Below are positions 2,003 to 29,267 of a stretch of 64,000 nucleotides of DNA, in pieces (position 1 is the first letter of the stretch; every line of letters begins with the position of its first letter). Origin of the DNA: a bacterium (lineage in GTDB: Bacteria; Patescibacteriota; Dojkabacteria; GCA-016699595); contig CP064982.1 of the NCBI GenBank assembly GCA_016699595.1, positions 507,962-571,961 of the forward strand, written 5' to 3'. The translations under genes and the position numbers were made by a program. The notes under the pieces are model-generated. The model was not told the DNA's origin and made no database searches. It worked only from the letters and a program-made list of their open reading frames with translations.

Positions 2003-4252
2003 ATGCCTATTGATATCTCAAATAAGTACTCTACTGATTTTTTACAAACTTTAGAAAAAGCATTTGAGCTTACTTACTTTCAAAATAGATTTGAAGTAAC
2101 TATATGGGATTTTTGGAAAGTGATAATTGACCAGGAAAGCTATTTTACACTCTTTACTGAGATAAATTTGCCAACAGATACTATAGACAAGATAAAAACG
2201 CTACCCACTTCGATTGACCAGAATATTGCAAAGAAAAAGCCTGATACAAAGTCTATAAATACCTACAGAGTTCAAATTTCACATTCTTTGCACAAGTTGA
2301 TACTACTAAGTTACATGATTTCTGTTCGTTTTGGCAGAGAATTTGTGAATATTGAGGACAGCATACTCGCTTTTCTGGAATATCCTGACTCAGAACATAT
2401 ATTTTATAAATTGAAAATTGATCAACGAGCATTGGAAAATGCTATCAATGCGAGAATTGGAGGAGGCATGAATCTTACTGAAGATACTACAACTCCAGTA
2501 CTGAACAAATTTTCCACTGATTTAACAGCAAAAGCAAGGATAACTCCATTACACAAAGCCATTGGAAGAGATAGAGAAATTGCACAGTTGATTCGTGTTT
2601 TATCTAGAGAAAGCAAGTCAAATGCTATTCTAGTAGGAGAAGCAGGAGTCGGGAAGACAGCTATAGTTGAAACATTCGCTGAAATGGTAGTCAAAAATGA
2701 AATTCCAACAGCATTTCTTGATGCAAGGGTACTAAGTTTGAACCTATCATTATTGATGAGTGCAGCAATGAATCGGCAAGTTATCGACGATGTACTTACT
2801 ACAATTTTGGATGAAGTCAAACTTGATCCAAACATTATTCTCTTTATTGATGAGATTCATCTTATCACGCAAGACTCGAATCAAAGTGAAACTAGTATTA
2901 TTGCAAATATCTTGAAACCTGCTCTTGCAAGAGGTGAGATAAAAACCATTGGAGCAACAACTATGAGTGAATATAGGAAGTTTATTGAACCTGATGGAGC
3001 ACTTGCTAGAAGATTTGAAGTAATCAAAGTTGAGGAACCAAATGTAGAAAACTCTATACTTATTTGCAAAGAGGTAAGGAAGAGATTGGAAAACTTTCAT
3101 AAGTTGAAAATAAATGATGAAGCAATACAAAATGCTGTTGAATTATCAAAAAGATACATTACTGATAAATTTCTGCCAGATAAGGCTATTGACCTTCTAG
3201 ATGAAGCATGTGCAGCTGAAGAATCAGGTTCGAGTGCTAAATCAGATGACAAAATAATCACTGCTGACGATGTAAGAAAAATACTATCAGAAAAAACGGG
3301 GATACCTATTCAAAAACTGAGTGCTGACGAAGCAAGTAAACTAATGGATTTGGAAGGACAACTGAGAGAACATGTAAAAGGACAAGATTTAGCAGTCTAT
3401 AAAGTAGCAGAAGTTATACGCAGAAGTAGAGCTGGATTGAAAGATCCCAAAAAACCAATTGGTAGCTTTCTTTTTCTGGGTCCGTCTGGAGTTGGTAAGA
3501 CCGAGCTGGCCAAAGCTATCACCAAAATTGTTTATGACACAGAGAAAGCGATGATTAGGGTAGATATGAGCGAATTTAGCGAAAGTCATACTGTACAAAG
3601 GTTAGTTGGAGCACCCCCTGGTTATGTCGGTTATGAAGAGGGTGGCCAGCTTACCAATCCTGTTTTTGAAAGACCATATAGTTTGGTATTGTTAGATGAA
3701 ATTGAAAAGGCAAATGCAAAAGTCTTTGATGTATTTCTACAAGTCCTTGATGATGGACGACTTACAGATGGTCAAGGAAGAACTGTCGACTTTAAAAACA
3801 CAATTATAATCGCAACAAGTAACCTAGCTTCAGATATTATTACTCAATATTTTTCACAATCTATGAATCAATATCAAACTGCTTCTATAGAAGAAAGTGA
3901 ACAAATGATCAATAATTTGTACGAGTCCTATGTATTACCTGTTTTAAAACAAAGCTTTAGACCAGAATTCATCAATAGATTTGATAATGTCGTTATATTC
4001 AATGGACTTACTATTGATGCACTGAAACATATAGGACAGCTTAAGGTCAAAGAAATTGAAGATAGACTGAAGGATAGAAATATCACTATAAATCTGAAAC
4101 CACAAACTTTGGATGCCTTAGTTGCAAAATCATATTCTCCACAATTTGGTGCAAGACCTTTAGTTCGGGCCTTGCAGGAAAAAGTTGAGAACTTTATAGC
4201 AAAAGGTATAATTGATGCAAGCATCAAAGATGGAGACAGAGTCGAAATCTAA
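2003..4252 (+). CDS. clpC: Clp/Hsp100 AAA+ ATPase (ClpC/ClpA-like), two nucleotide-binding domains
   Basis: 749 aa; Walker A GEAGVGKTAIVE (D1) and GPSGVGKTELAKAI (D2), conserved GAPPGYVGYEEGGQLT, N-terminal Clp-N-like region. Confidence 0.85.
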   Translation: MPIDISNKYSTDFLQTLEKAFELTYFQNRFEVTIWDFWKVIIDQESYFTLFTEINLPTDTIDKIKTLPTSIDQNIAKKKPDTKSINTYRVQISHSLHKLILLSYMISVRFGREFVNIEDSILAFLEYPDSEHIFYKLKIDQRALENAINARIGGGMNLTEDTTTPVLNKFSTDLTAKARITPLHKAIGRDREIAQLIRVLSRESKSNAILVGEAGVGKTAIVETFAEMVVKNEIPTAFLDARVLSLNLSLLMSAAMNRQVIDDVLTTILDEVKLDPNIILFIDEIHLITQDSNQSETSIIANILKPALARGEIKTIGATTMSEYRKFIEPDGALARRFEVIKVEEPNVENSILICKEVRKRLENFHKLKINDEAIQNAVELSKRYITDKFLPDKAIDLLDEACAAEESGSSAKSDDKIITADDVRKILSEKTGIPIQKLSADEASKLMDLEGQLREHVKGQDLAVYKVAEVIRRSRAGLKDPKKPIGSFLFLGPSGVGKTELAKAITKIVYDTEKAMIRVDMSEFSESHTVQRLVGAPPGYVGYEEGGQLTNPVFERPYSLVLLDEIEKANAKVFDVFLQVLDDGRLTDGQGRTVDFKNTIIIATSNLASDIITQYFSQSMNQYQTASIEESEQMINNLYESYVLPVLKQSFRPEFINRFDNVVIFNGLTIDALKHIGQLKVKEIEDRLKDRNITINLKPQTLDALVAKSYSPQFGARPLVRALQEKVENFIAKGIIDASIKDGDRVEI

Positions 4253-4390
4253 TATAGATGAAATAATTAACGGTTATTTATTATGCAGAGAAGAAAAAAT
4301 ACAAATCGATCTATTTATCGACTTGAATTAATCATGGAATATCTTGCGAGATATTTAAGGTGTTAAGAAATACAATATAATATAACATCA

Positions 4391-4435
4391 GGGATAAAAG
4401 GAAAATTGCTCGGCTCGCAATTTTCCTTTTATCCC
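4391..4435. terminator. Perfect 18-bp stem / 9-nt loop hairpin between convergent clpC and SDR genes, putative bidirectional intrinsic terminator
   Basis: GGGATAAAAGGAAAATTG-ctcggctcg-CAATTTTCCTTTTATCCC followed by TTGTT; lies downstream of both flanking 3' ends. Confidence 0.4.
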
Positions 4436-4520
4436 TTGTTAAATGAGGGTGAACGAAACGAAGTGGAGTGAAAGCGCAGCGTCCCCTTGAGTTCAAGCCC
4501 GAGCCGTCTCTACACTTAGA

Positions 4521-5261
4521 TTAATCATATCCACCATCAACTTTTAGAATACTTCCAGTAATATAATTAGCATCATCAGATGCAAAAAATAAAATCGCTT
4601 TTGCAATTTCTTCTGGTCTGGCAAATCTTTTCATATAGATTTTCTCTGTTTCTTCTTCAACAAAATTCTTTGGCAAATCTTTATTCATCTCGGTATCCAC
4701 CCAACCTGGAGCAATGGAATTTACTTGAATTTTTGGAGCAAGTTCTTTTGCCAAATTCTTAGTCAAATTAATAATTCCTGCTTTTGAAGCGTCATAATCC
4801 GCAGCTTCAGGACTAAGAGTATTAATTCCATTTGTTGAAGAAATGTTAATTATTTTTCCTTTGCCATTTTTCAGCATTTGTTCAGAAGCATATTTACTGC
4901 AAAGAAATGTTCCAATTAAATTGACATTTAAGGTTTGTTTCCATTGCTCAACAGTTTTTTCAAACAATGGAACATCAAAAACAATTCCCGCATTATTTAC
5001 TAAGATGTCAATTTTTCCAAAAGTATCGATTGTTTTTTGAATCATTTCTTTGACTTCGTTTTCTTTGGAAACATCGCATTTGATTGCTATTGCTTCGGAA
5101 CCAATTTTCTTGATTTGATCAACAACAGAAAATGCTTCTTTTTCAGAGGAAAAATAATTGACTACTACTTTTGCTCCTTCTTTTGCGAAAAGTAATGCAG
5201 TAGATTTGCCAATACCTTTACTAGAACCAGTAATAATTGCGATTTTATTTTTTAGCTTCAT
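4521..5261 (-). CDS. Short-chain dehydrogenase/reductase (3-oxoacyl-ACP reductase FabG-like)
   Basis: MKLKNKIAIITGSSKGIGK glycine-rich NAD(P)-binding motif, NNAG, YxxxK-type catalytic region; start trimmed from track M (5306) to the MKLKNK Met at 5261. Confidence 0.8.
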   Translation of the reverse strand: MKLKNKIAIITGSSKGIGKSTALLFAKEGAKVVVNYFSSEKEAFSVVDQIKKIGSEAIAIKCDVSKENEVKEMIQKTIDTFGKIDILVNNAGIVFDVPLFEKTVEQWKQTLNVNLIGTFLCSKYASEQMLKNGKGKIINISSTNGINTLSPEAADYDASKAGIINLTKNLAKELAPKIQVNSIAPGWVDTEMNKDLPKNFVEEETEKIYMKRFARPEEIAKAILFFASDDANYITGSILKVDGGYD

Positions 5262-5366
5262 ATGGATATGATTAATTGATTGGTATATATAACTTTTTCT
5301 ACACATCTAGGCTCGGGCTTGAATTTCATTTAACATCAATATGAACGAAATAGAGGAAATATAGGT

Positions 5367-6152
5367 TTATTTCCATATCTCAAACATTCTTTTTGCAACC
5401 TCATATGGGTTTTTGCTAGCCCAAATATTTCTACCTACAGCCATTCCTGCAGAACCTGAAGATTTCAACAATTGAACTCTATTTAGAAAGTCTTCTTCTT
5501 TGGTTTCTATACCGCCAGCAAAAATAACTTTCGTAGGGCCTGCAATCTGTACAATTTCTGAAAGTATTGACAACTTGTCATCTTGATTCATATCTTCACT
5601 AAAATGTGGATATTTTATCTTTACTGCATCAGCTCCAATCTCTAGACCCAATCGTGCATGGTATGCAATGTTTTTTGGACTTGTACTCAGCTCATCATGC
5701 TCTTTTTTGGATGGATATGACCATAAGACAAAATCAAGACCAGCAACTTTTGTGCTTTCTTGCAATATTCCTGCTTCCCTAACCATGTCAGATTCATATT
5801 CAGAACCCCAATATACAGTATAACCTATCGCTGTGGCTCCTATGCTAACTGCATATTCTATCGTGGAATATGCCAAACTGACATCATTTGTAGCAGACAT
5901 TCTTGTCTTCCCATTTATCTTAAGCACTAACGAAGTTGGAGAAAAGTTTAGCATTGAACCAAGTTTATATTTTTGAGAATAATGTGATGCCGGACCTTTT
6001 TGAAGAGCAATTCCGGTGAATCCTTGTTCTTGTGCAAGTTTGAAAATATTATAAATATCTGAACTCCAGCTATTCAAGCATGATGGCCCAATTTCCATGC
6101 CTTGATCATAAGCTAAGATAAATACTTGTCCTTTGTTGTTTGTAATTTTCAT
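5367..6152 (-). CDS. Class I fructose-bisphosphate aldolase (DhnA/FbaB-type)
   Basis: 261 aa; ILAYDQG, LKIN, AIGYTVYWGSE, VLWSYP, GADAVKIKYP segments align by eye with the E. coli FbaB family. Confidence 0.7.
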   Translation of the reverse strand: MKITNNKGQVFILAYDQGMEIGPSCLNSWSSDIYNIFKLAQEQGFTGIALQKGPASHYSQKYKLGSMLNFSPTSLVLKINGKTRMSATNDVSLAYSTIEYAVSIGATAIGYTVYWGSEYESDMVREAGILQESTKVAGLDFVLWSYPSKKEHDELSTSPKNIAYHARLGLEIGADAVKIKYPHFSEDMNQDDKLSILSEIVQIAGPTKVIFAGGIETKEEDFLNRVQLLKSSGSAGMAVGRNIWASKNPYEVAKRMFEIWK

Positions 6153-6453: not shown

Positions 6454-6470
6454 TTGTCTATACCAATCAA

Positions 6471-8393
6471 TTATAATTTTCCTGATATTATCGTATGTAC
6501 CAACGAAGATGGAAAAACCACATGTACATTTCTCTTTATACTTTCAATCATTATATTACCAAATTTGCCAGAAATCAAATTGTCATCCAGATCTTTATCT
6601 ACAAACCTGAGCATTAACAGAATCCCTAGATCCTTTTTTGACATATTTTTTATTTGTGTATTTATAGGATCAGTTAAAAAGTTAAAAAGTTTTTCTATGC
6701 CATATTTATAACCAAGCTCAAAAAAAACTGATTTCATCAAACTTTCAAATAATTCTGATTCAGAAAACCTTCTATACAACGCTTGTTTTCCAAATGTTGA
6801 TAACTGACATTGATTATTTGAAACCTTAGCTAAACTGGCCAATCTTAATAACTCTAACATTTGCGAATTTTGTTTGGACGAAGGTTTACCAATGTCAAAG
6901 TTTACAACTGATTCTAAAGTATGTAATAACTTTGTAACAATCCCATTTTGAAATCTACCCTCTTCATTGTCCTCAAATTTAGTCACTATCAAAACTTTTG
7001 TCAAAATCATATCTGACATTTTATCCGCTCTAAGATGAGTAGCATTCTTAGAATTGTTTTTAATATTTACATTGCCAAGCAAAAACTTCCTGATATCTTC
7101 AAAATGCTTCTTTTCGAGCAATCTATATAGTCTATTTAGAGATTTTTTGTAGTATAGACTATTTCTATTTCTCTCCCTTAGATTTACATTTACAGATGTC
7201 AATTCATATATCGGCAATAATTTTTGAAAAGTGGCCAAATATTGTTCAAAGTTATCATAGCACCTGTACACACTTTGAAACTTTTCGTTTATTCTCTCAA
7301 ACTCTTCAACTACTTCAAATGTAGAAACTTTATTTGGAACACTTGAATAGTTTAACAAATTACTCTCATCACCATCATTCATATATTCAGAGATTCTTAG
7401 AACCTTGTTTATGAAGTCCTTCGTAAAGCTCTCAGTATTCAGAAAAGATTGTTTTGCAGGATGAGATACAAACAAACTTTTGGCAAGAAATTTCAAAAAA
7501 ACTATATCTTCAGCCGATAGTAATTCAAAGTTCAATTTTAATTCAAGATTCTCTATAAATTTCTCAATGGACTTCTCCTCCAATATTTCTAGTTCAAAAT
7601 CAAAAAGATTGAGTCTTATCAATAATTCTCTGCACTTATGAAAAAAAACTACGAGAAGTTCATCGTATTCCAAACTCTGGATCACTTCTATTTTGTCTAA
7701 TGTATTTTGAAATCTATAAAACAAATATAATGAATCAAGTTGGGGTGAATATTTTTTAAATGATTGACCTCGCAGAAGTTTTTGACCCGCCTCTAACTTC
7801 TCAAATCTAGCTGCAACAAAACCTTCGGTAAATTTCCAAATATACCCATCTTTATAAATTCTAGCTAGAAGGATCGCTCCCCTTTTCAAAAAGATTCTAT
7901 CACTTTTGTCAACAGAAAAAACACTTTTCGTTTTGATATTTTCAAGGAAGACTATATTTGCAGAATCAAATCCAACTATTTTGAATTCGGAATAAATTGT
8001 ATGTAGAAAATTCTGGAAAAGTATATATTCCTCAGGGTCAACTACTTTTGCAAAATCAAGATAATGTTCTAGTATTGTTTTTGTCTCTCCACCAATATCT
8101 ACTTTTCCTTCAAAAACCAATCCTTCAAACAAAGCTACAATCTGATCCATATTTGCTACACCTTCAAAATATTGCATAATCTTCAATTCAAAGTACTTAG
8201 GCCAAAACTTCTGTGAAGCAAGCCAAACTCCAATTTTCTTCATCCATCCTGGACCTTGAAATTTTGAAGAAAGGGTAAAATTCGAAATATTTAATTCGTT
8301 TGATTTTGAATCTGGATAATTGTCAAATTTCTCCTTTGCTTTAACTTTTTTTTCAGAAAATGGATCTTGATTTGCCAGTATCTTGTATGACAT
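6471..8393 (-). CDS. Hypothetical protein (640 aa), no recognisable motif
   Basis: Long uninterrupted ORF tightly spaced with neighbours; no Walker or other motif recognised. Confidence 0.5.
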   Translation of the reverse strand: MSYKILANQDPFSEKKVKAKEKFDNYPDSKSNELNISNFTLSSKFQGPGWMKKIGVWLASQKFWPKYFELKIMQYFEGVANMDQIVALFEGLVFEGKVDIGGETKTILEHYLDFAKVVDPEEYILFQNFLHTIYSEFKIVGFDSANIVFLENIKTKSVFSVDKSDRIFLKRGAILLARIYKDGYIWKFTEGFVAARFEKLEAGQKLLRGQSFKKYSPQLDSLYLFYRFQNTLDKIEVIQSLEYDELLVVFFHKCRELLIRLNLFDFELEILEEKSIEKFIENLELKLNFELLSAEDIVFLKFLAKSLFVSHPAKQSFLNTESFTKDFINKVLRISEYMNDGDESNLLNYSSVPNKVSTFEVVEEFERINEKFQSVYRCYDNFEQYLATFQKLLPIYELTSVNVNLRERNRNSLYYKKSLNRLYRLLEKKHFEDIRKFLLGNVNIKNNSKNATHLRADKMSDMILTKVLIVTKFEDNEEGRFQNGIVTKLLHTLESVVNFDIGKPSSKQNSQMLELLRLASLAKVSNNQCQLSTFGKQALYRRFSESELFESLMKSVFFELGYKYGIEKLFNFLTDPINTQIKNMSKKDLGILLMLRFVDKDLDDNLISGKFGNIMIESIKRNVHVVFPSSLVHTIISGKL

Positions 8394-8405
8394 TTACAAA
8401 TTATA

Positions 8406-9107
8406 TCAATTGAAGCGTTCAAAATGAATACTTTCCTCAGAATAGCCCTTTTGAAGTAAGTATTCCTGCAAATCATTTACAGCTTGTTTGCTACCACAAA
8501 TGAAGAAATGAGGAGATTTCAAGTTGCTTAATGTAAGTTTATCTAATCCGTCTTGTATATGCCCAATATTATAGCTACCAAATATCTCTTCACCTTTGGA
8601 TAACCATAATTCATAGTGAAAGTGATTATTCTCTTTCATGAGCTTATCAAAACAGTCCTTATAGTAAATGTCCTTTACAAATCTCAGTCCATGATAAAGA
8701 AACAAATGTCTTATTCTTTGTGAATGAAAATTTATTTCTGTCTCAGGGAGCAAACTTTCTATCATGATTTTTATAGGGGCAATACCAACTCCAGTTGCTA
8801 AGAAAATTAGATCCGAATCGATAGGGATCTTTTCAAGTGTAAATTTACCTATAGGACCTAGCATTTTGATGTTATCGCCAATTTGTAAATTTGATAATAA
8901 GCTTGTAAATCTACCTCCTTCAATGATTTCTATCGTCAAACTAAAGGAATCTTCTAGAATACCTGATATTGAATAAGCCCTAGCAACCTTGTCTAATACT
9001 AAGTTGACATATTGACCAGGCTGTGGATTAAAATTTTGTGGCCTTGCAAAAAAAAATTCGACAACACTTGTTGTCAAATTTATCTTTTTTAATAGCCTTG
9101 TGAACAT
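8406..9107 (-). CDS. Ferredoxin-NADP reductase-like FAD/NAD(P)-binding oxidoreductase
   Basis: RAYSIS (RxYS FAD-binding) and LATGVGIAPIKIM nucleotide-binding motifs; start trimmed to MFTRLL at 9107 to avoid overlap with the upstream gene. Confidence 0.6.
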   Translation of the reverse strand: MFTRLLKKINLTTSVVEFFFARPQNFNPQPGQYVNLVLDKVARAYSISGILEDSFSLTIEIIEGGRFTSLLSNLQIGDNIKMLGPIGKFTLEKIPIDSDLIFLATGVGIAPIKIMIESLLPETEINFHSQRIRHLFLYHGLRFVKDIYYKDCFDKLMKENNHFHYELWLSKGEEIFGSYNIGHIQDGLDKLTLSNLKSPHFFICGSKQAVNDLQEYLLQKGYSEESIHFERFN

Positions 9108-9132
9108 ATACTTTATAAAAAGAGAAAAATTT

Positions 9133-25181: not shown

Positions 25182-28100
25182 TTAAATATACTTCAAGAAG
25201 AAAATCTTCTTCCCTGTTGATGCGAGAGAACCCAAAATCTCTCCAAAATTGATATTTTCAATATCAGAATCAATTATATTTACAGACTCTTCGTTTGAAG
25301 GTCTTTCCGTAGATGAGTACTTCTCAGGTTGTGACTCTACGACTCGATATTGACCAGGCAATAAATCAGTGAATTCATAATAGCCGAATTCATCAGTCAG
25401 AACTATTTGCCCATTTGACAAAGTCATTTTGATACCTGCAAGTGATCTGTCGCCATAATTCTTTGATTTATCGGCATTTTTATCATGATATACATAACCA
25501 GATATTGTATACAGTTTTAATCTAGCATATGCCAAGTCAGTATCCATAACATTAGCAGGTTGCCCAGATGGTAGAAGTGGTGGAGTAGCTACTACTGTTG
25601 CTACATTCACATGCTGACTTGAATCAGTTGGTGCAAGATAAGTTGCAGTACATTGCATACTCTCTCCTTCAGTCAAAACATCTTTCGGACACTGAATATT
25701 ATTTATAAGATTATCTGTAACTGATATATCATGTAGATTTGTATTTCCAGTGTTTGTCACATAGTATGTTATATTCATCATTTCTCCAGCAGATACTACA
25801 ACACCCGGAGGTGTATTTGCATCATCTCCGTTTATTTTCTTAACAATACTAATTGATGAAGATGTACCAACTAAACCTGCATCTATTGTTAAATTATTTT
25901 CTCCGACCATAAGCTCAAATTGTTCCGTATCTCCAAGAGCATCAGAATTTGAATCTGTCAAAAAACTCCCACCATTCTTGTATGTAAATTCATAACCATT
26001 AGGTTTAGCAAACCTTACTTTATAACTTCCATGCAATATATTTTCAAAAAGATAGTGTCCATCTGCATCAGTGAAAACAGTTCCAACTACATTATTCAAG
26101 CTATCCAATAATTCAACTTTCATATTTCCAAACCCAGATTCATCATTATCTTGGATCCCGTTGCCATTCTTATCTAACCAAACAAAGTTACCTATACTTC
26201 CATTAACTACTATTATAGGTACATTATTTGACTGTACTGGTAAAGCTAGACCTGTAGCTCTAAGCATAAACTTGTTTGTATAAATATCTCCTGGTTTATT
26301 CGGATTTGATATAGAAGGTATCAATACCAGCAGATACTTTGATTCTTCATTAGGTAACATTGCACTTGTTTGTATTCTAAAACCAGTAACCTCAGTTATG
26401 TTTGACGGACATCCGGCATTACCGAACTGACCTTGAGCACACCAAACTATACTTGGATTGATGGTTTGTGGGTCAAAGTCTTGAGGAAGCGTCAACAAAG
26501 ATTGTGATTGTTTCGAGTAAAGTATTGCACTTGGATCTACTCCAGATACTTTTGTCAAACTACTCAAGTAAGTAGTTCCTGTAAAATTCGTTGCAGGATT
26601 GCGCCCATCACCATTCCATGGTAGCCAATCGATGAGGTCAGTTCCAGCAACTGGATCACTTCCGGTGTTTTTCATCACAATTTCATACTCAAGTGGTTGC
26701 ATACTCTCAATTAGGGGTGAAATTGCTTTTTTGTTTACCGAAAAAGCAGATGAATTTTCAAACTGTACTGTAGCAGTAGAAGTTCGTACACTTTCAAACG
26801 AATTATCATTATCTGCAGACATAATTGCTTGATTAATTTTGATATCTCCATTACCAATGGTTGCATCTGAAATTGTTTTATATGTAATTTTTGTCAGGGG
26901 TAAACCAGAGGTTACATTACCAAAATTCCAAACTAATGTTGCACTTCCATCATTGTTCACAGTGAATGTTGGTTCACAAGTTACAGGTTGAATCATATCA
27001 GTATCCATACATATAGAAGAGCCATATTGATATCCCAATCCAGCAGGAATTGTATCTACTATTTTTACATTTATTGCTTCACCGGCTGGAGTTACTCCCA
27101 TAGCATCAGTACTTGGTTGCAAGTACCAGTTTATCTCACTCCCTGATAATTTCGAATCATTTTTTGTAGTTAAATCTTTCGTTGTTTTATTTATCCTAAC
27201 TCTAGAACCTGTAACTATTACCCTATCTCCGTGAGTGCCAGTAGCAGTATTTGCATTATAAGAAGGAACTGTTTGCCATGAACTTGGGTCATTTGGATTT
27301 GCATTAAACCAATTCCCACCTGGTATGTACCACTTACCATAATTTGGAACTATATCGCCAGGTTGTGCTGTAGGCAACATCTTATGTTTAATTGCTAAAA
27401 ATTGTACGCCATAACCTGTTTGGGCTATCATATCAGCCTGTTCAGATGCAGTAAAATTATCCCTAAATTTCAACCTAACTTTTGTAACCCGTTCAGGACC
27501 TCCAGGTATACTGTTTAGATCCAAATACCATATTCCCCCAGTAGAGTCATTATCAAAACATGTGCCAAGTCTTTCATCTTCAAAATTACTCCATGTAATT
27601 CCTTGACCATTTAGACCACCTACTCCATATTCAATAACTGCATCAGTATATGATTCCCATAAACTTGAATTTGATGGAATATGAGTAAATGCACCTTCAC
27701 CAGTATTTCCAGGGATTCTATCTATTGAAGAATTTTTGTTATCTATAGTTGTACACATAATCGAACCATTTGGTATATCAGCTATCCCATAATAATACCA
27801 AAGATTCAATGACGTCCAATTTGAATTGGCACTTAAAAACCCATCTCCTGTACGATAGGATGATCCAACATATTCTGCACCCCACCACATTGCACATGAA
27901 TCAGCATTTGCTTCAGTAATAAAGTTACAATTAATCAAATCATCGCTACGATAATCATAATCAGCTTTTTCAACCGAACCTTCAGATGGTCTAGCTATAA
28001 TTTGTTGATACCAGTTTTCAGTTCCCACTAAATCTGACTGTCCTGTTGTTTGTATATTTGTCATTCCACTACCTGGCTCATTACCAACCCCGCCCCAGTT

Positions 28101-29267
28101 TTGCCTTCCTGATATTGCTCCAATTGGCTCAAAGTTATTTATTTTATTCAGAGCAGAGATCTGATACTGATTTGATCCAGAAAACTCTGAATATGGTATC
28201 CATACACCTATTGAATACGAACCAATCCAATTATCTCTTGAAGATAAAGACACACCCGTCCAATCAACAGTTGGGAAATAAGATGGATTTGTATGAAGAT
28301 CAGTAATTGTTACATCAATTAACTGTGAATTACCCATACTAGGAATACAAGTTATTTGCCCTGAATCTTCCACAGATCTGTCAGGCGTTGAATAGCCAGG
28401 GTTATTCCCTCCATAAATACCTAATCTTCCAGCAGGTGCATTATAAGCATAGTGAAGGTTATTCGTAAATCCAGGGGTAGAAAAATAATTTAGTGACAAT
28501 CCGCATTCAAACAATTTTGCATTGGGACTAATCATTGATATATCATCTTGAAAAGTTATTGGTAAGGCAGGAATTTCTGATCCTGCACGAAGTTTCAAGC
28601 CAACTCCATAAGTCCATACTCCTCCAACTACACCATCTACTGTTATGGTTCCTCTAAATGAGGCTGACAATTTCTGTAAATCCACCTTCATGGCAGATGT
28701 TCCAGTTATATCAACTGTTGTTGCATTATCAGTATTTGGTACACCAGAAACTGAAACTGAAGCAGATACATTGAAAGTACTCCCATCAACTAATGTAGGC
28801 AAAGCTTTTACATTTGCTGTGAAACCCAGCGTATCACCCGTAGATTTTGTACCTAAGTTACATGTCAATTGACTTTGATTGTTAACGCCATCACCAGTTA
28901 TTTGTGAACCAGTTCCATTACAAACCAATGGAAGTGCTTCCCATTTATACCCTAGAGGTAAAGGAACTGTAGTCAATGTATAATTATCATAAGGGCTTGG
29001 AACAGTAGCATTTGGATCATTCAGAGAAACATCAAATCGATAGCTTGTTATCTGACCAGCCCGAACTATCTCATTACTATCACCAATGTCATTACCCGAA
29101 CCTGCAACAGAATCAAAAGGTGCAGTACCATCGAATAGTTTCGTGATAGCGATTTCAGGATAAGTGGTCGTGGAATCAGCATTAACTTTCAATTTATAGT
29201 CACTGTAAATATTTATAGATAAAAAAACAAATACAAAAAGTGTTATTAGTTTAAAGAATTTTTTCAT
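25182..29267 (-). CDS. Large secreted surface protein (1361 aa) with SdrD/Cna B-type domains and C-terminal SLASTGK motif
   Basis: Signal peptide MKKFFKLITLFVFVFLSINIYS; B-type repeats (GNFVWLDKNGNGIQD..., YTISGYVYHDKNADKSKNYGD...); C-terminus GSLASTGKKIFFLKYI. Confidence 0.75.
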   Translation of the reverse strand: MKKFFKLITLFVFVFLSINIYSDYKLKVNADSTTTYPEIAITKLFDGTAPFDSVAGSGNDIGDSNEIVRAGQITSYRFDVSLNDPNATVPSPYDNYTLTTVPLPLGYKWEALPLVCNGTGSQITGDGVNNQSQLTCNLGTKSTGDTLGFTANVKALPTLVDGSTFNVSASVSVSGVPNTDNATTVDITGTSAMKVDLQKLSASFRGTITVDGVVGGVWTYGVGLKLRAGSEIPALPITFQDDISMISPNAKLFECGLSLNYFSTPGFTNNLHYAYNAPAGRLGIYGGNNPGYSTPDRSVEDSGQITCIPSMGNSQLIDVTITDLHTNPSYFPTVDWTGVSLSSRDNWIGSYSIGVWIPYSEFSGSNQYQISALNKINNFEPIGAISGRQNWGGVGNEPGSGMTNIQTTGQSDLVGTENWYQQIIARPSEGSVEKADYDYRSDDLINCNFITEANADSCAMWWGAEYVGSSYRTGDGFLSANSNWTSLNLWYYYGIADIPNGSIMCTTIDNKNSSIDRIPGNTGEGAFTHIPSNSSLWESYTDAVIEYGVGGLNGQGITWSNFEDERLGTCFDNDSTGGIWYLDLNSIPGGPERVTKVRLKFRDNFTASEQADMIAQTGYGVQFLAIKHKMLPTAQPGDIVPNYGKWYIPGGNWFNANPNDPSSWQTVPSYNANTATGTHGDRVIVTGSRVRINKTTKDLTTKNDSKLSGSEINWYLQPSTDAMGVTPAGEAINVKIVDTIPAGLGYQYGSSICMDTDMIQPVTCEPTFTVNNDGSATLVWNFGNVTSGLPLTKITYKTISDATIGNGDIKINQAIMSADNDNSFESVRTSTATVQFENSSAFSVNKKAISPLIESMQPLEYEIVMKNTGSDPVAGTDLIDWLPWNGDGRNPATNFTGTTYLSSLTKVSGVDPSAILYSKQSQSLLTLPQDFDPQTINPSIVWCAQGQFGNAGCPSNITEVTGFRIQTSAMLPNEESKYLLVLIPSISNPNKPGDIYTNKFMLRATGLALPVQSNNVPIIVVNGSIGNFVWLDKNGNGIQDNDESGFGNMKVELLDSLNNVVGTVFTDADGHYLFENILHGSYKVRFAKPNGYEFTYKNGGSFLTDSNSDALGDTEQFELMVGENNLTIDAGLVGTSSSISIVKKINGDDANTPPGVVVSAGEMMNITYYVTNTGNTNLHDISVTDNLINNIQCPKDVLTEGESMQCTATYLAPTDSSQHVNVATVVATPPLLPSGQPANVMDTDLAYARLKLYTISGYVYHDKNADKSKNYGDRSLAGIKMTLSNGQIVLTDEFGYYEFTDLLPGQYRVVESQPEKYSSTERPSNEESVNIIDSDIENINFGEILGSLASTGKKIFFLKYI

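Follow-up and report, generated by a model that had tools for sequence, protein, structure and literature searches.

Integrons are known in both Bacteria and Archaea, and the archaeal integron integrases (IntI) possess the IntI-specific domain (Ghaly et al. 2022, PMC9668308). Solo cassettes, described as single attC sites lacking integron-integrases (SALIN) or as attG insertions, are inserted outside integrons at 5'-GWT-3' sites, with IntI1-3 in E. coli (bioRxiv 10.1101/2022.09.11.507474). Gene exchange between bacteria of the Candidate Phyla Radiation (CPR) and DPANN archaea has been reported as well, with no mention of integrons, integrases or cassettes (PMC12455944). Here we analyse a 64,000-nucleotide stretch of contig CP064982.1 (positions 507,962 to 571,961 of the forward strand; hereafter the window), in which a gene for a short-chain dehydrogenase/reductase (SDR) lies between nested pairs of inverted repeats. 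As the probable explanation of this locus we propose an integron-like solo cassette of 948 bp, whose repeats are internal helices of a fold that spans the entire element.

Insertion of the cassette between two host genes

The 948-bp cassette is an insertion, absent from a sister strain that is about 97% identical. It sits between an aldolase gene and a ClpB-like gene as a discrete insertion at G|TT, and its empty site is preserved on two contigs from other samples (L093 and L094), which carry the same gatC-aldolase genes (aldolase 99% identical in amino acids, flanks about 97% identical in nucleotides) and no SDR gene, the aldolase gene being followed directly by the tail of the ClpB-like gene. 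These contigs align to the window up to 5327-5336 and resume from 4383 downward; the comparison of empty and filled alleles therefore delimits 4386-5333 as the inserted segment. The empty site reads ...CATATTGATG|TTATATGG... where the window has ...CATATTGATG|TTAAATGAAATTC...SDR...CCCTGATG|TTATAT..., or, in a longer view, ...TTTCGTTCATATTGATG|TTATATGGTATGTCTTAACA... where the window has ...TTTCGTTCATATTGATG|TTAAATGAAATTCAAGCCCGAGCC ... SDR ... CTTTTATCCCTGATG|TTATATTATATTG.... Because both junctions share the 8 nt TGATGTTA, the exact crossover is defined only to within these positions. The filled allele recurs in another assembly, on a contig (L001) identical to the window; among the read sets, SRR11674035 and SRR22315508 represent filled or array forms and SRR30164240/51 the empty site. 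The parts of the cassette and its target, with sequences in gene orientation, are as follows.

4386..5333, minus strand: mobile single-gene cassette, 948 bp; 5' end TTAAAT... (5333), 3' end ...CCCTGATG (4386)
5326..5334, minus strand: core-like box R', G|TTAAATGA; covaries with R'' in L083
5310..5323: outer inverted repeat, 5' arm TTCAAGCCCGAGCC, -62..-49 from the ATG, after the conserved leader TTAAATGAAAT
5285..5292, minus strand: TTATATAT box, -31..-24 from the ATG, resembling a TATA box and a -10 element; conserved in the alignment, travels with the cassette
5263..5276: inner inverted repeat, 5' arm, -15..-2 relative to the ATG
4521..5261, minus strand: FabG / glucose-1-dehydrogenase-like classical SDR gene, 246 aa, MKLKNK...GGYD followed by the stop (Pfam and NCBIfam)
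4845..4863: intragenic helix arm, partner 5144..5162; 19 nt, 89% complementary
4584..4617: intragenic helix arm, partner 5220..5253; 34 nt, 74% complementary, with a 15-bp perfect core
4520..4533: inner inverted repeat, 3' arm, comprising the final 13 nt of the open reading frame (ORF) with its stop codon plus 1 nt
4492..4505: outer inverted repeat, 3' arm GGCTCGGGCTTGAA, 15 nt past the stop codon
4447..4491, minus strand: GC-rich conserved trailer (CTCAAGGGGACGCTGCGC...CACCCTC), the same behind unrelated cassettes
4438..4446, minus strand: inverse-core-like box R'' TCATTTAAC, in which ATTTAAC fits RYYYAAC
4390..4436: 20-bp perfect hairpin, central stem of the attC-like site
4380..4385, minus strand: host half of the target core, TTATAT after the crossover G, uninterrupted in the sister strain (TTGATG|TTATAT)
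Host target site: TTGATGTTATAT

G5334 is host DNA, and the left recombination junction falls between 5334 and 5333. At the 3' end, the attC-like site consists of ATTTAAC, the 20-bp hairpin and G|TTAAAT. The hairpin of the window is a deletion derivative, without a segment of about 33 nt (CCAAAT-hairpin-ACTT, containing a second inner hairpin) that relatives carry, and it probably doubles as a bidirectional terminator. Its 7-nt loop (4410-4416) reads GAGCCGA in gene orientation in the window and its exact reverse complement, TCGGCTC, in three relatives (L004 at about 4810, L011 at about 945, L041 at 2728-2734), a difference suggestive of an inversion of the loop within a perfect palindrome.

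A first-pass annotation of the window had placed the SDR gene (740 bp there, 741 nt by our count) between an outer and an inner pair of perfect 14-bp inverted repeats, TTCAAGCCCGAGCC and ATTAATCATATCCA, had listed a mobile or invertible gene cassette among its candidates, and had advised comparing the locus with relatives for presence or absence of the gene. Both repeats are perfect, the gene lies between them, and it is absent from L093 and L094. The case for a mobile cassette is supported by this empty site, by at least nine other contexts and by arrays beside a tyrosine recombinase; the two repeats are nevertheless not the ends of the element, whose borders lie at 4386 and 5333. The hairpin, annotated as 18 bp at 4391-4435, proves larger, with 20-bp perfect arms at 4390-4409 and 4417-4436, and the two direct repeats that had also been noticed, TCTACAC (4509-4515 / 5298-5304) and the 9-nt TGAACGAAA (4450-4458 / 5342-5350), are indeed present. 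The latter pair was considered as a target-site duplication and rejected, since its copy at 5342-5350 is host DNA that the empty-site allele also contains; an upstream attC remnant at TTTCGTTCATATTGATG was likewise rejected, this being native host sequence in the same allele. The TCTACAC repeat (GTGTAGA in gene orientation) lies in internal loops beside the outer stem on both sides and is partially conserved in L003 and L004 as TAAGTGT(A/T)G; no role was found for it, and it may be due to chance.

Other contexts, arrays and recombinases

The same cassette occurs at 80-94% nucleotide identity in at least nine other contexts, in CPR bacteria and DPANN archaea. The closest loci (L003, CAYSEI010000004; L004, DAOOOW010000019) are 93% identical over 935 bp and have unrelated flanks, the homology extending from GTTAAATGA, 73 nt 5' of the ATG, to about 121 nt 3' of the stop codon. 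All nine upstream contexts break directly before TTA(A/T)(A/G)(T/C)GAAATTCAAG, with a G preceding the TTA in six of them; the 4 nt 5' of the junction vary by context (CGAT, AAAC, ATAC, CAAT, GTAG, ACGA and others) and G|TTA is kept. A contig of 947 nt (L097) provides a fifth upstream context and, having no terminal overlap, is not evidence for a circle. Many contigs with close SDR homologs measure 900-1100 nt, about the size of the cassette, which suggests that assemblies break at cassette borders because several contexts coexist in a sample.

The contigs that carry the cassette belong to two domains of life. Bacterial markers are found in the window (L17, the alpha C-terminal domain of RpoA, EF-Tu, FtsK), in L003 (GreA) and in L095 (S2, EF-Ts, L1/L11/NusG), and archaeal markers in L084 (L21e, Rpb4, DUF655). 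The neighbouring aldolase has two close relatives among 5.8 billion proteins (99% and 70% identity, with none of the next above 42%) and no relative above 70% identity outside its own species; the SDR, by contrast, has hundreds of relatives at 80-97% identity, under labels that include Pacebacteria, Uhrbacteria, Micrarchaeota and Aenigmarchaeota. Plasmid records gave two short, weak matches only, both within the SDR coding region, and phage collections gave none.

In three genomes (L083/85/87, L003 and L012), the cassette is part of an array beside a divergent XerA/IntI-like tyrosine recombinase gene. The order in L083/85/87 is divergent tyrosine recombinase, a 187-aa ORF, SDR, SnoaL and 2',5'-ligase, and on the sister contig L084 the array goes on with ParE and HicAB. 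In the bacterium represented by L003, the SDR cassette heads the array, with 115 nt between it and the start of the gene for a 270-aa recombinase, and in L012 (PCYI01000001; Vogelbacteria) the recombinase gene adjoins the cassettes. The recombinases of L083 (274 aa) and L003 pass the XerA model NF040815 XerA_Arch with 232-236 bits (cut-off 220). The window itself contains no recombinase homolog, no second copy of the element or of its site and no comparable hairpin, and the cassette is therefore a solo insertion.

In L041, L083/84 and L095, small ORFs form arrays and are set apart by sites of the same kind. In L041 (JAHINX010000036; Patescibacteria) each ORF is followed by such a site in the same orientation, composed of an inverse-core-like box (GCCTAAC, GTATAAC), a stem (e.g., GGGATAAAAG / CTTTTATCCC) and a core-like box (G|TTAGGC, G|TTATAC). 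The stem encloses two inner hairpins with CCAAAT between them, and its sequence varies from site to site while its complementarity is kept (TCGC/GCGA, TTGGGC/GCCCAA, TCCCC/GGGGA, TCGTGC/GCACGA). The bacterial locus L095 holds, at 8266-12748, six small accessory genes (TspO, histidine phosphatase, SDR, transglutaminase-core, a 107-aa ORF and HD) between a peptidyl-prolyl isomerase gene and the rplA-rplK-nusG-secE operon, with attC-like sites between the genes and no recombinase within 10 kb; the histidine-phosphatase ORF of this cluster contains five nested perfect repeats of 12-14 bp. In the archaeal L083, the inter-cassette junction is short (...YTAAC-N5-TTA...), as opposed to the long hairpin site of the CPR arrays, and repeated units of about 130 nt that contain no ORF (TTATACACAATATCCC...GGGGTGTCTAAC) lie between cassettes (8868-8995, 9802-9935, 12015-12300 and 12790-12925). 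Downstream of the L012 array lie GC-rich perfect inverted repeats of 43 and 49 bp, about 1.1 kb apart (6830-6962 and 8067-8231), which probably constitute another mobile or structured element.

A fold from the recombination site into the coding sequence

What is the relevance of the repeats that bracket the gene? The first-pass annotation had judged two independent 14-bp inverted repeats to be very unlikely by chance. The outer pair is far more than chance would yield: its motif is expected 0.08 times per window with up to two mismatches, and two matches arose in none of 100 shuffles; the AT-rich inner motif, on the other hand, is compositionally ordinary. Six distinct perfect inverted-repeat pairs of at least 14 bp with a spacing of up to 1.5 kb exist in the 64 kb, four of them at the SDR locus, and the flanks of the SDR ORF pair with -59.6 kcal/mol, compared with -23.7 +/- 5.7 kcal/mol for 34 other window genes. 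A third, outermost inverted repeat is formed by GTTAAATGA / TCATTTAAC (5326-5334 / 4438-4446), and further nested pairs lie within the ORF, namely the two intragenic helices listed above and the pairs 4900-4915/5037-5052 and 4918-4932/5000-5014.

Head-to-tail joining of the cassette, as in an excised circle, brings its 3' and 5' non-coding parts together in one nested hairpin, in the order 20-bp hairpin, R''/R' (TCATTTAAC/GTTAAATGA, 9-10 bp), outer repeat (14 bp) and inner repeat (14 bp). The DNA fold of the joined ends reaches -56.3 kcal/mol, against -20.5 +/- 3.1 kcal/mol for shuffled sequences (z = -11.5). As the crossover G|TT falls within the 3' arm, integration divides the hairpin and places complementary arms on either side of the ORF. 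The repeats that were flagged in the window are internal helices of this larger nested cassette fold. Other cassettes carry bracket stems of different sequence in the same place, right after the leader ...GAAAT and right before the trailer ACTC...:

DedA cassette: 5' arm AAATTTTAGCGCG, 3' arm CGCGCGTCAAAATTT
L041 SDR-like cassette: 5' arm TTCAAAAACCCGCCTT, 3' arm AAGGCGGGTTTTTGAA
Histidine-phosphatase cassette: 5' arm CGAGAAAAGAG, 3' arm CTCTTTTCTCG
2',5'-ligase cassette: 5' arm GGACACTATCC, 3' arm GGATAGTGTCC
SnoaL cassette: 5' arm GGGGCAAC, 3' arm GTTGCCCC

A 153-aa ORF of L041 has two nested bracket pairs, of 12 and 23 bp. Mean flank pairing is -41.8 kcal/mol for 18 cassette ORFs and -23.7 kcal/mol for 34 ordinary genes (p = 7e-7). 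Ordinary genes served as the control here; a comparison of each cassette's own flanks with those of other cassettes was dropped, as it is confounded by attC-like hairpins shared between neighbours.

An alignment of 11 SDR cassettes (80-94% nucleotide identity to the window) provides evidence that the pairing is maintained. The consensus restricted to Watson-Crick pairs comprises 126 pairs, with 95.7% of cells paired, and 16 pairs are changed on both sides, compared with 6.2 +/- 1.7 after shuffling (as many in 0 of 500 shuffles) and 4-5 when partners are slid. Compensatory changes affect 8 of the 12 pairs of the outer stem, TTCAAGCCCGAGCC/GGCTCGGGCTTGAA in the window being replaced by TTCAAGCCCTCGCC/GGCGAGGGCTTGAA in L083, with the core CCCGAGCC/GGCTCGGG corresponding to CCCTCGCC/GGCGAGGG in this archaeal copy. 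The R'/R'' pair covaries as well (L083: ATTAAGTGA / TCACTTAAC).

The fold continues through the gene. Against dinucleotide shuffles, the whole window cassette has z-scores of -9.15 (sense) and -6.7 (antisense), and 12 other window genes range from -2.1 to +1.15. When only synonymous codons are shuffled, z is -3.7 for the SDR ORF of the window, -7.0 for L003, -6.8 for L004, -5.4 for L012 and -4.6 for L083, and the 2',5'-ligase and histidine-phosphatase cassette ORFs reach -5.6 and -4.1; five control genes give -0.5 to +1.25, and L005 (-0.3) and L009 (-0.8) have decayed outer stems. SDR homologs below about 72% identity have z near 0, with one clear exception (L014, -4.2). Synonymous codons are arranged to increase folding in copies with an intact outer stem. 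The strength of ORF folding differs between cassettes: some fold strongly, the window copy moderately, and others show no such structure. Compared with L003 and L004, the window copy falls short by 20-25 kcal/mol of folding energy and has lost part of its site; it is probably immobilised and decaying, judging from few cases.

Based on these data, we infer that the cassette moves as an excised circle or as single-stranded DNA, with the recombinase supplied in trans. Its long self-complementary fold could present the recombination site, join the two borders or protect a single strand, and selection on the fold would then act via mobility. On a broader and more tentative level, it is conceivable, though short of probable, that one distinct integron-like system is common to CPR bacteria and DPANN archaea and that in it a XerA-like recombinase without the IntI domain moves single-gene cassettes selected to fold, coding sequence included, over their whole length into a long nested hairpin, presumably as single-stranded DNA.

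Several observations weigh against this interpretation. The array recombinases fail the integron-integrase model TIGR02249 (220-232 bits; cut-off 265) and are without the IntI-specific extra domain, with about 43-60 residues missing: in the alignment to VchIntIA, their best solved relative, only residues 8-186 and 246-317 are covered. An attC-to-leader circular junction (...CTTTTATCCC(N)GATG|TTAAATGAAATTCAAGCC...) was not found in any locus examined; for the window cassette no recombinase, circular junction or tandem copy was seen, and its crossover can be placed only within the shared 8 nt. With regard to the fold, compensatory changes are lacking in the inner repeat, whose pairing is perfect or almost perfect in the closest relatives only, departures being G.U pairs or mismatches. 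The synonymous-shuffle z-score of L006 is only -1.4, unstructured cassette ORFs exist (the L041 SDR-like and DedA ORFs, both with z near 0, and transglutaminase), z-scores of about -3 occur in some ordinary genes when shuffles are few, and the link between an intact stem and a strong fold rests on about 10 copies. Finally, sense and antisense strands gain the same energy in the synonymous shuffles; this comparison, the counts of G.U and A.C deviations and the cassettes with reversed ORFs were all tried as strand tests, and none of them separates DNA from RNA.

This last point bears on the view that the fold acts in RNA, a long-range mRNA stem for RNase III processing having been another candidate of the first-pass annotation. 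In this view, the SDR mRNA or a longer transcript reading through an array would pair its two ends as a panhandle that stabilises the mRNA or is cut by RNase III into a monocistronic unit, and mobility would be a separate matter. Consistent with this, the whole sense transcript folds with z of about -7 to -9 and has the 5'/3' helices in its minimum-energy structure, RNAalifold scores the sense strand at -106 and the antisense strand at -89, and several positions that deviate from Watson-Crick pairing read as G.U in the sense strand (inner stem of L004, L006 and L010; outer stem of L010), the 34 G.U-type against 21 A.C-type deviations among the Watson-Crick-only pairs being an excess that is not significant. 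However, the outer 5' arm lies upstream of the sole promoter-like box, the TTATATAT box, and would therefore be transcribed only by read-through from the aldolase gene. A full promoter was not found at this box by a simple sigma-70 scan, and from its sequence we would assign it a promoter role only provisionally. Cassettes with a reversed ORF keep the bracket relative to the cassette and not to the gene, the stems are nested together with the hairpin of the recombination site and with the R''/R' pair, the gain in the synonymous shuffles is as large on the antisense strand as on the sense strand, and folding fades in copies without the cassette stems though their gene is intact. Taken together, we regard a role confined to RNA as unlikely.

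A non-autonomous transposon, either resembling a miniature inverted-repeat transposable element (MITE) with terminal inverted repeats or a palindrome-associated single-stranded DNA element moved by an IS200/IS605-type transposase at TTGAT-like sites, would account for a discrete, transposase-free insertion with a strong hairpin close to one of its ends. The terminal sequences, TTGAT|G in the host target and CTGAT|G in the cassette, recall the left and right cleavage sites of IS200/IS605 elements. Such models fail because there is no target-site duplication (the repeated TGATGTTA belongs to the element's own site), because no fixed tetranucleotide precedes the junction, where G|TTA is kept and the 4 nt before it vary, and because the hairpin is confined to the 3' end, the left end having none. 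The flagged repeats are internal to the borders at 4386 and 5333 and not terminal, the cassettes stand head to tail in arrays beside a tyrosine recombinase, and no transposase gene was noted in the arrays examined; we hold this origin to be very improbable. Practically no credence attaches to a segment flipped by an invertase, or to functionless repeats arising by chance or one-off fold-back repair, for although a gene bracketed by inverted repeats is the classic layout of an invertible segment and the inner repeat is ordinary in composition, leader, gene and trailer are colinear in each of the 11 aligned copies, which come from different genomes, homologs of invertases or recombinases are absent from the window, the outer repeat exceeds chance by a wide margin and is maintained by compensatory changes, and unrelated cassettes have equivalent stems of different sequence.

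Host, significance and comparison with known systems

The window is bacterial, encoding L17, RpoA with the bacterial alpha C-terminal domain, S11, L2, SecY, EF-Tu, EF-G and FtsK, and its host is probably a CPR bacterium, based on a G+C content of 33.5% and nearest relatives among CPR/Patescibacteria records. An archaeal host, which the TATA-like box and the DPANN labels of relatives had brought into consideration, is ruled out by the bacterial L17, RpoA alpha C-terminal domain, EF-Tu/G and FtsK. The SDR protein matches Pfam adh_short_C2 (3.7e-68) and, in NCBIfam, the FabG and glucose 1-dehydrogenase subfamily. At gathering thresholds, Rfam identified two tRNAs only in the window, and a permissive scan of 4230-5400 returned sub-threshold chance matches only; no known RNA family in Rfam fits the GC-rich trailer. 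A promoter-proximal 15-bp segment of the cassette (5273-5287, TATACCAATCAATTA) forms a perfect inverted match with host DNA just upstream of gatC (6459-6473). Two window-specific substitutions relative to L003 and L004 make the match perfect, and the window has no other good copy; chance, gene conversion or adaptation to a host regulator could be responsible. Elsewhere, the window contains a VirB4/TraG-like ATPase gene (9133-11433), the gene for a 1361-aa surface protein with SdrD-B/SpaA-type domains (25182-29267) and two adjacent tRNA-Met genes (18324-18557).

The 948-bp unit combines a presence/absence polymorphism within one species with occurrence on contigs that bear bacterial markers and on one that bears archaeal markers. 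If the arrays are active, they would offer a testable vehicle for cross-domain transfer in organisms that are not culturable alone, and if the system is indeed shared by CPR bacteria and DPANN archaea, it would represent a cassette design undescribed for classical integrons and a concrete vehicle for the reported exchange. A fold kept by compensatory and synonymous changes in the gene of a conserved enzyme would mean that the mobility machinery constrains the codon choice of its cargo. On the practical side, flank pairing and the folding z-score of the ORF make up a simple computational signature, by which active cassettes can be found and domesticated ones set apart. In a literature search that was incomplete, we found no prior description of CPR/DPANN cassette arrays served by a recombinase without the IntI domain, nor of an ORF that is bracketed by cassette-specific stems and itself selected to fold, and the cassette-wide fold stands a real chance of being a new principle.

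How close is the system to integrons? Its loci are laid out in the manner of integrons, of attC clusters without an integrase and of solo cassettes at GWT sites (PMC9668308; bioRxiv 10.1101/2022.09.11.507474). Like integron cassettes, these are single-ORF units, head to tail beside a divergent tyrosine recombinase gene; the 3' site is an inverse-core/core pair around an internal hairpin, the junction is at G|TT, and the cargo is typical of integrons (ParE, HicAB, small enzymes) and spread across two domains. The paired boxes conform to RYYYAAC / GTTRRRY, with ATTTAAC and G|TTAAAT forming a 9-bp perfect pair in the window; L041 has GCCTAAC...GTTAGGC and GTATAAC...GTTATAC. Several cores fit only GTTAKRY. 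The hairpin between the boxes measures 20 bp in the window and is branched in relatives, where its two inner hairpins covary. Unlike integron integrases, the recombinases of L083 and L003 are without the IntI domain and pass the XerA model instead of the integron-integrase model. The integron-type arrangement, an array next to and divergent from the recombinase gene, is found in L003, L083/85/87 and L012, and not in the window with its solo cassette. In contrast to integron cassettes, complementarity here reaches well past the R boxes: it takes in the stems, particular to each cassette, on both sides of the ORF and continues within the gene itself. The cassettes also bring a TATA/-10-like box of their own, neither extrahelical bases nor an unpaired central spacer could be identified, and the hosts are CPR bacteria and DPANN archaea. 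We therefore file the locus as integron-like and not as an integron, a term that applies by analogy only and whose imperfect fit also counts against our interpretation.

The window copy also resembles SALIN/attG insertions: a lone cassette has its one attC-like site, neither an integrase nor a further att site lies in the vicinity, and the insertion occupies an ordinary stretch between genes, at a GWT triplet (here G|TT, within the shared 8 nt). Where those insertions involve IntI1-3, the enzyme here is probably a Xer-like recombinase, and the target shares the 8 nt TGATGTTA with the cassette end. A Xer-type recombinase is also the common feature with Xer/dif modules (pdif modules of Acinetobacter plasmids and dif-integrating elements), and the junction in the DPANN arrays, where about 5-6 nt separate the two halves of a short inverted pair (...GTCTAAC-ACAAA-TTA...), resembles a dif-like core. 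Unlike our arrays, pdif modules have sites in alternating orientation, no dedicated adjacent recombinase gene with an array beside it, and no long hairpins. Finally, RNase III stems of 16S/23S rRNA and the rods of viroid-like circles resemble the cassette in their long-range pairing around a gene of about 0.7-3 kb and in nested helices that span the whole unit. In contrast to these RNAs, the cassette is chromosomal DNA that encodes an ordinary enzyme and is known from DNA sequence alone, and its stems nest with a DNA recombination site.

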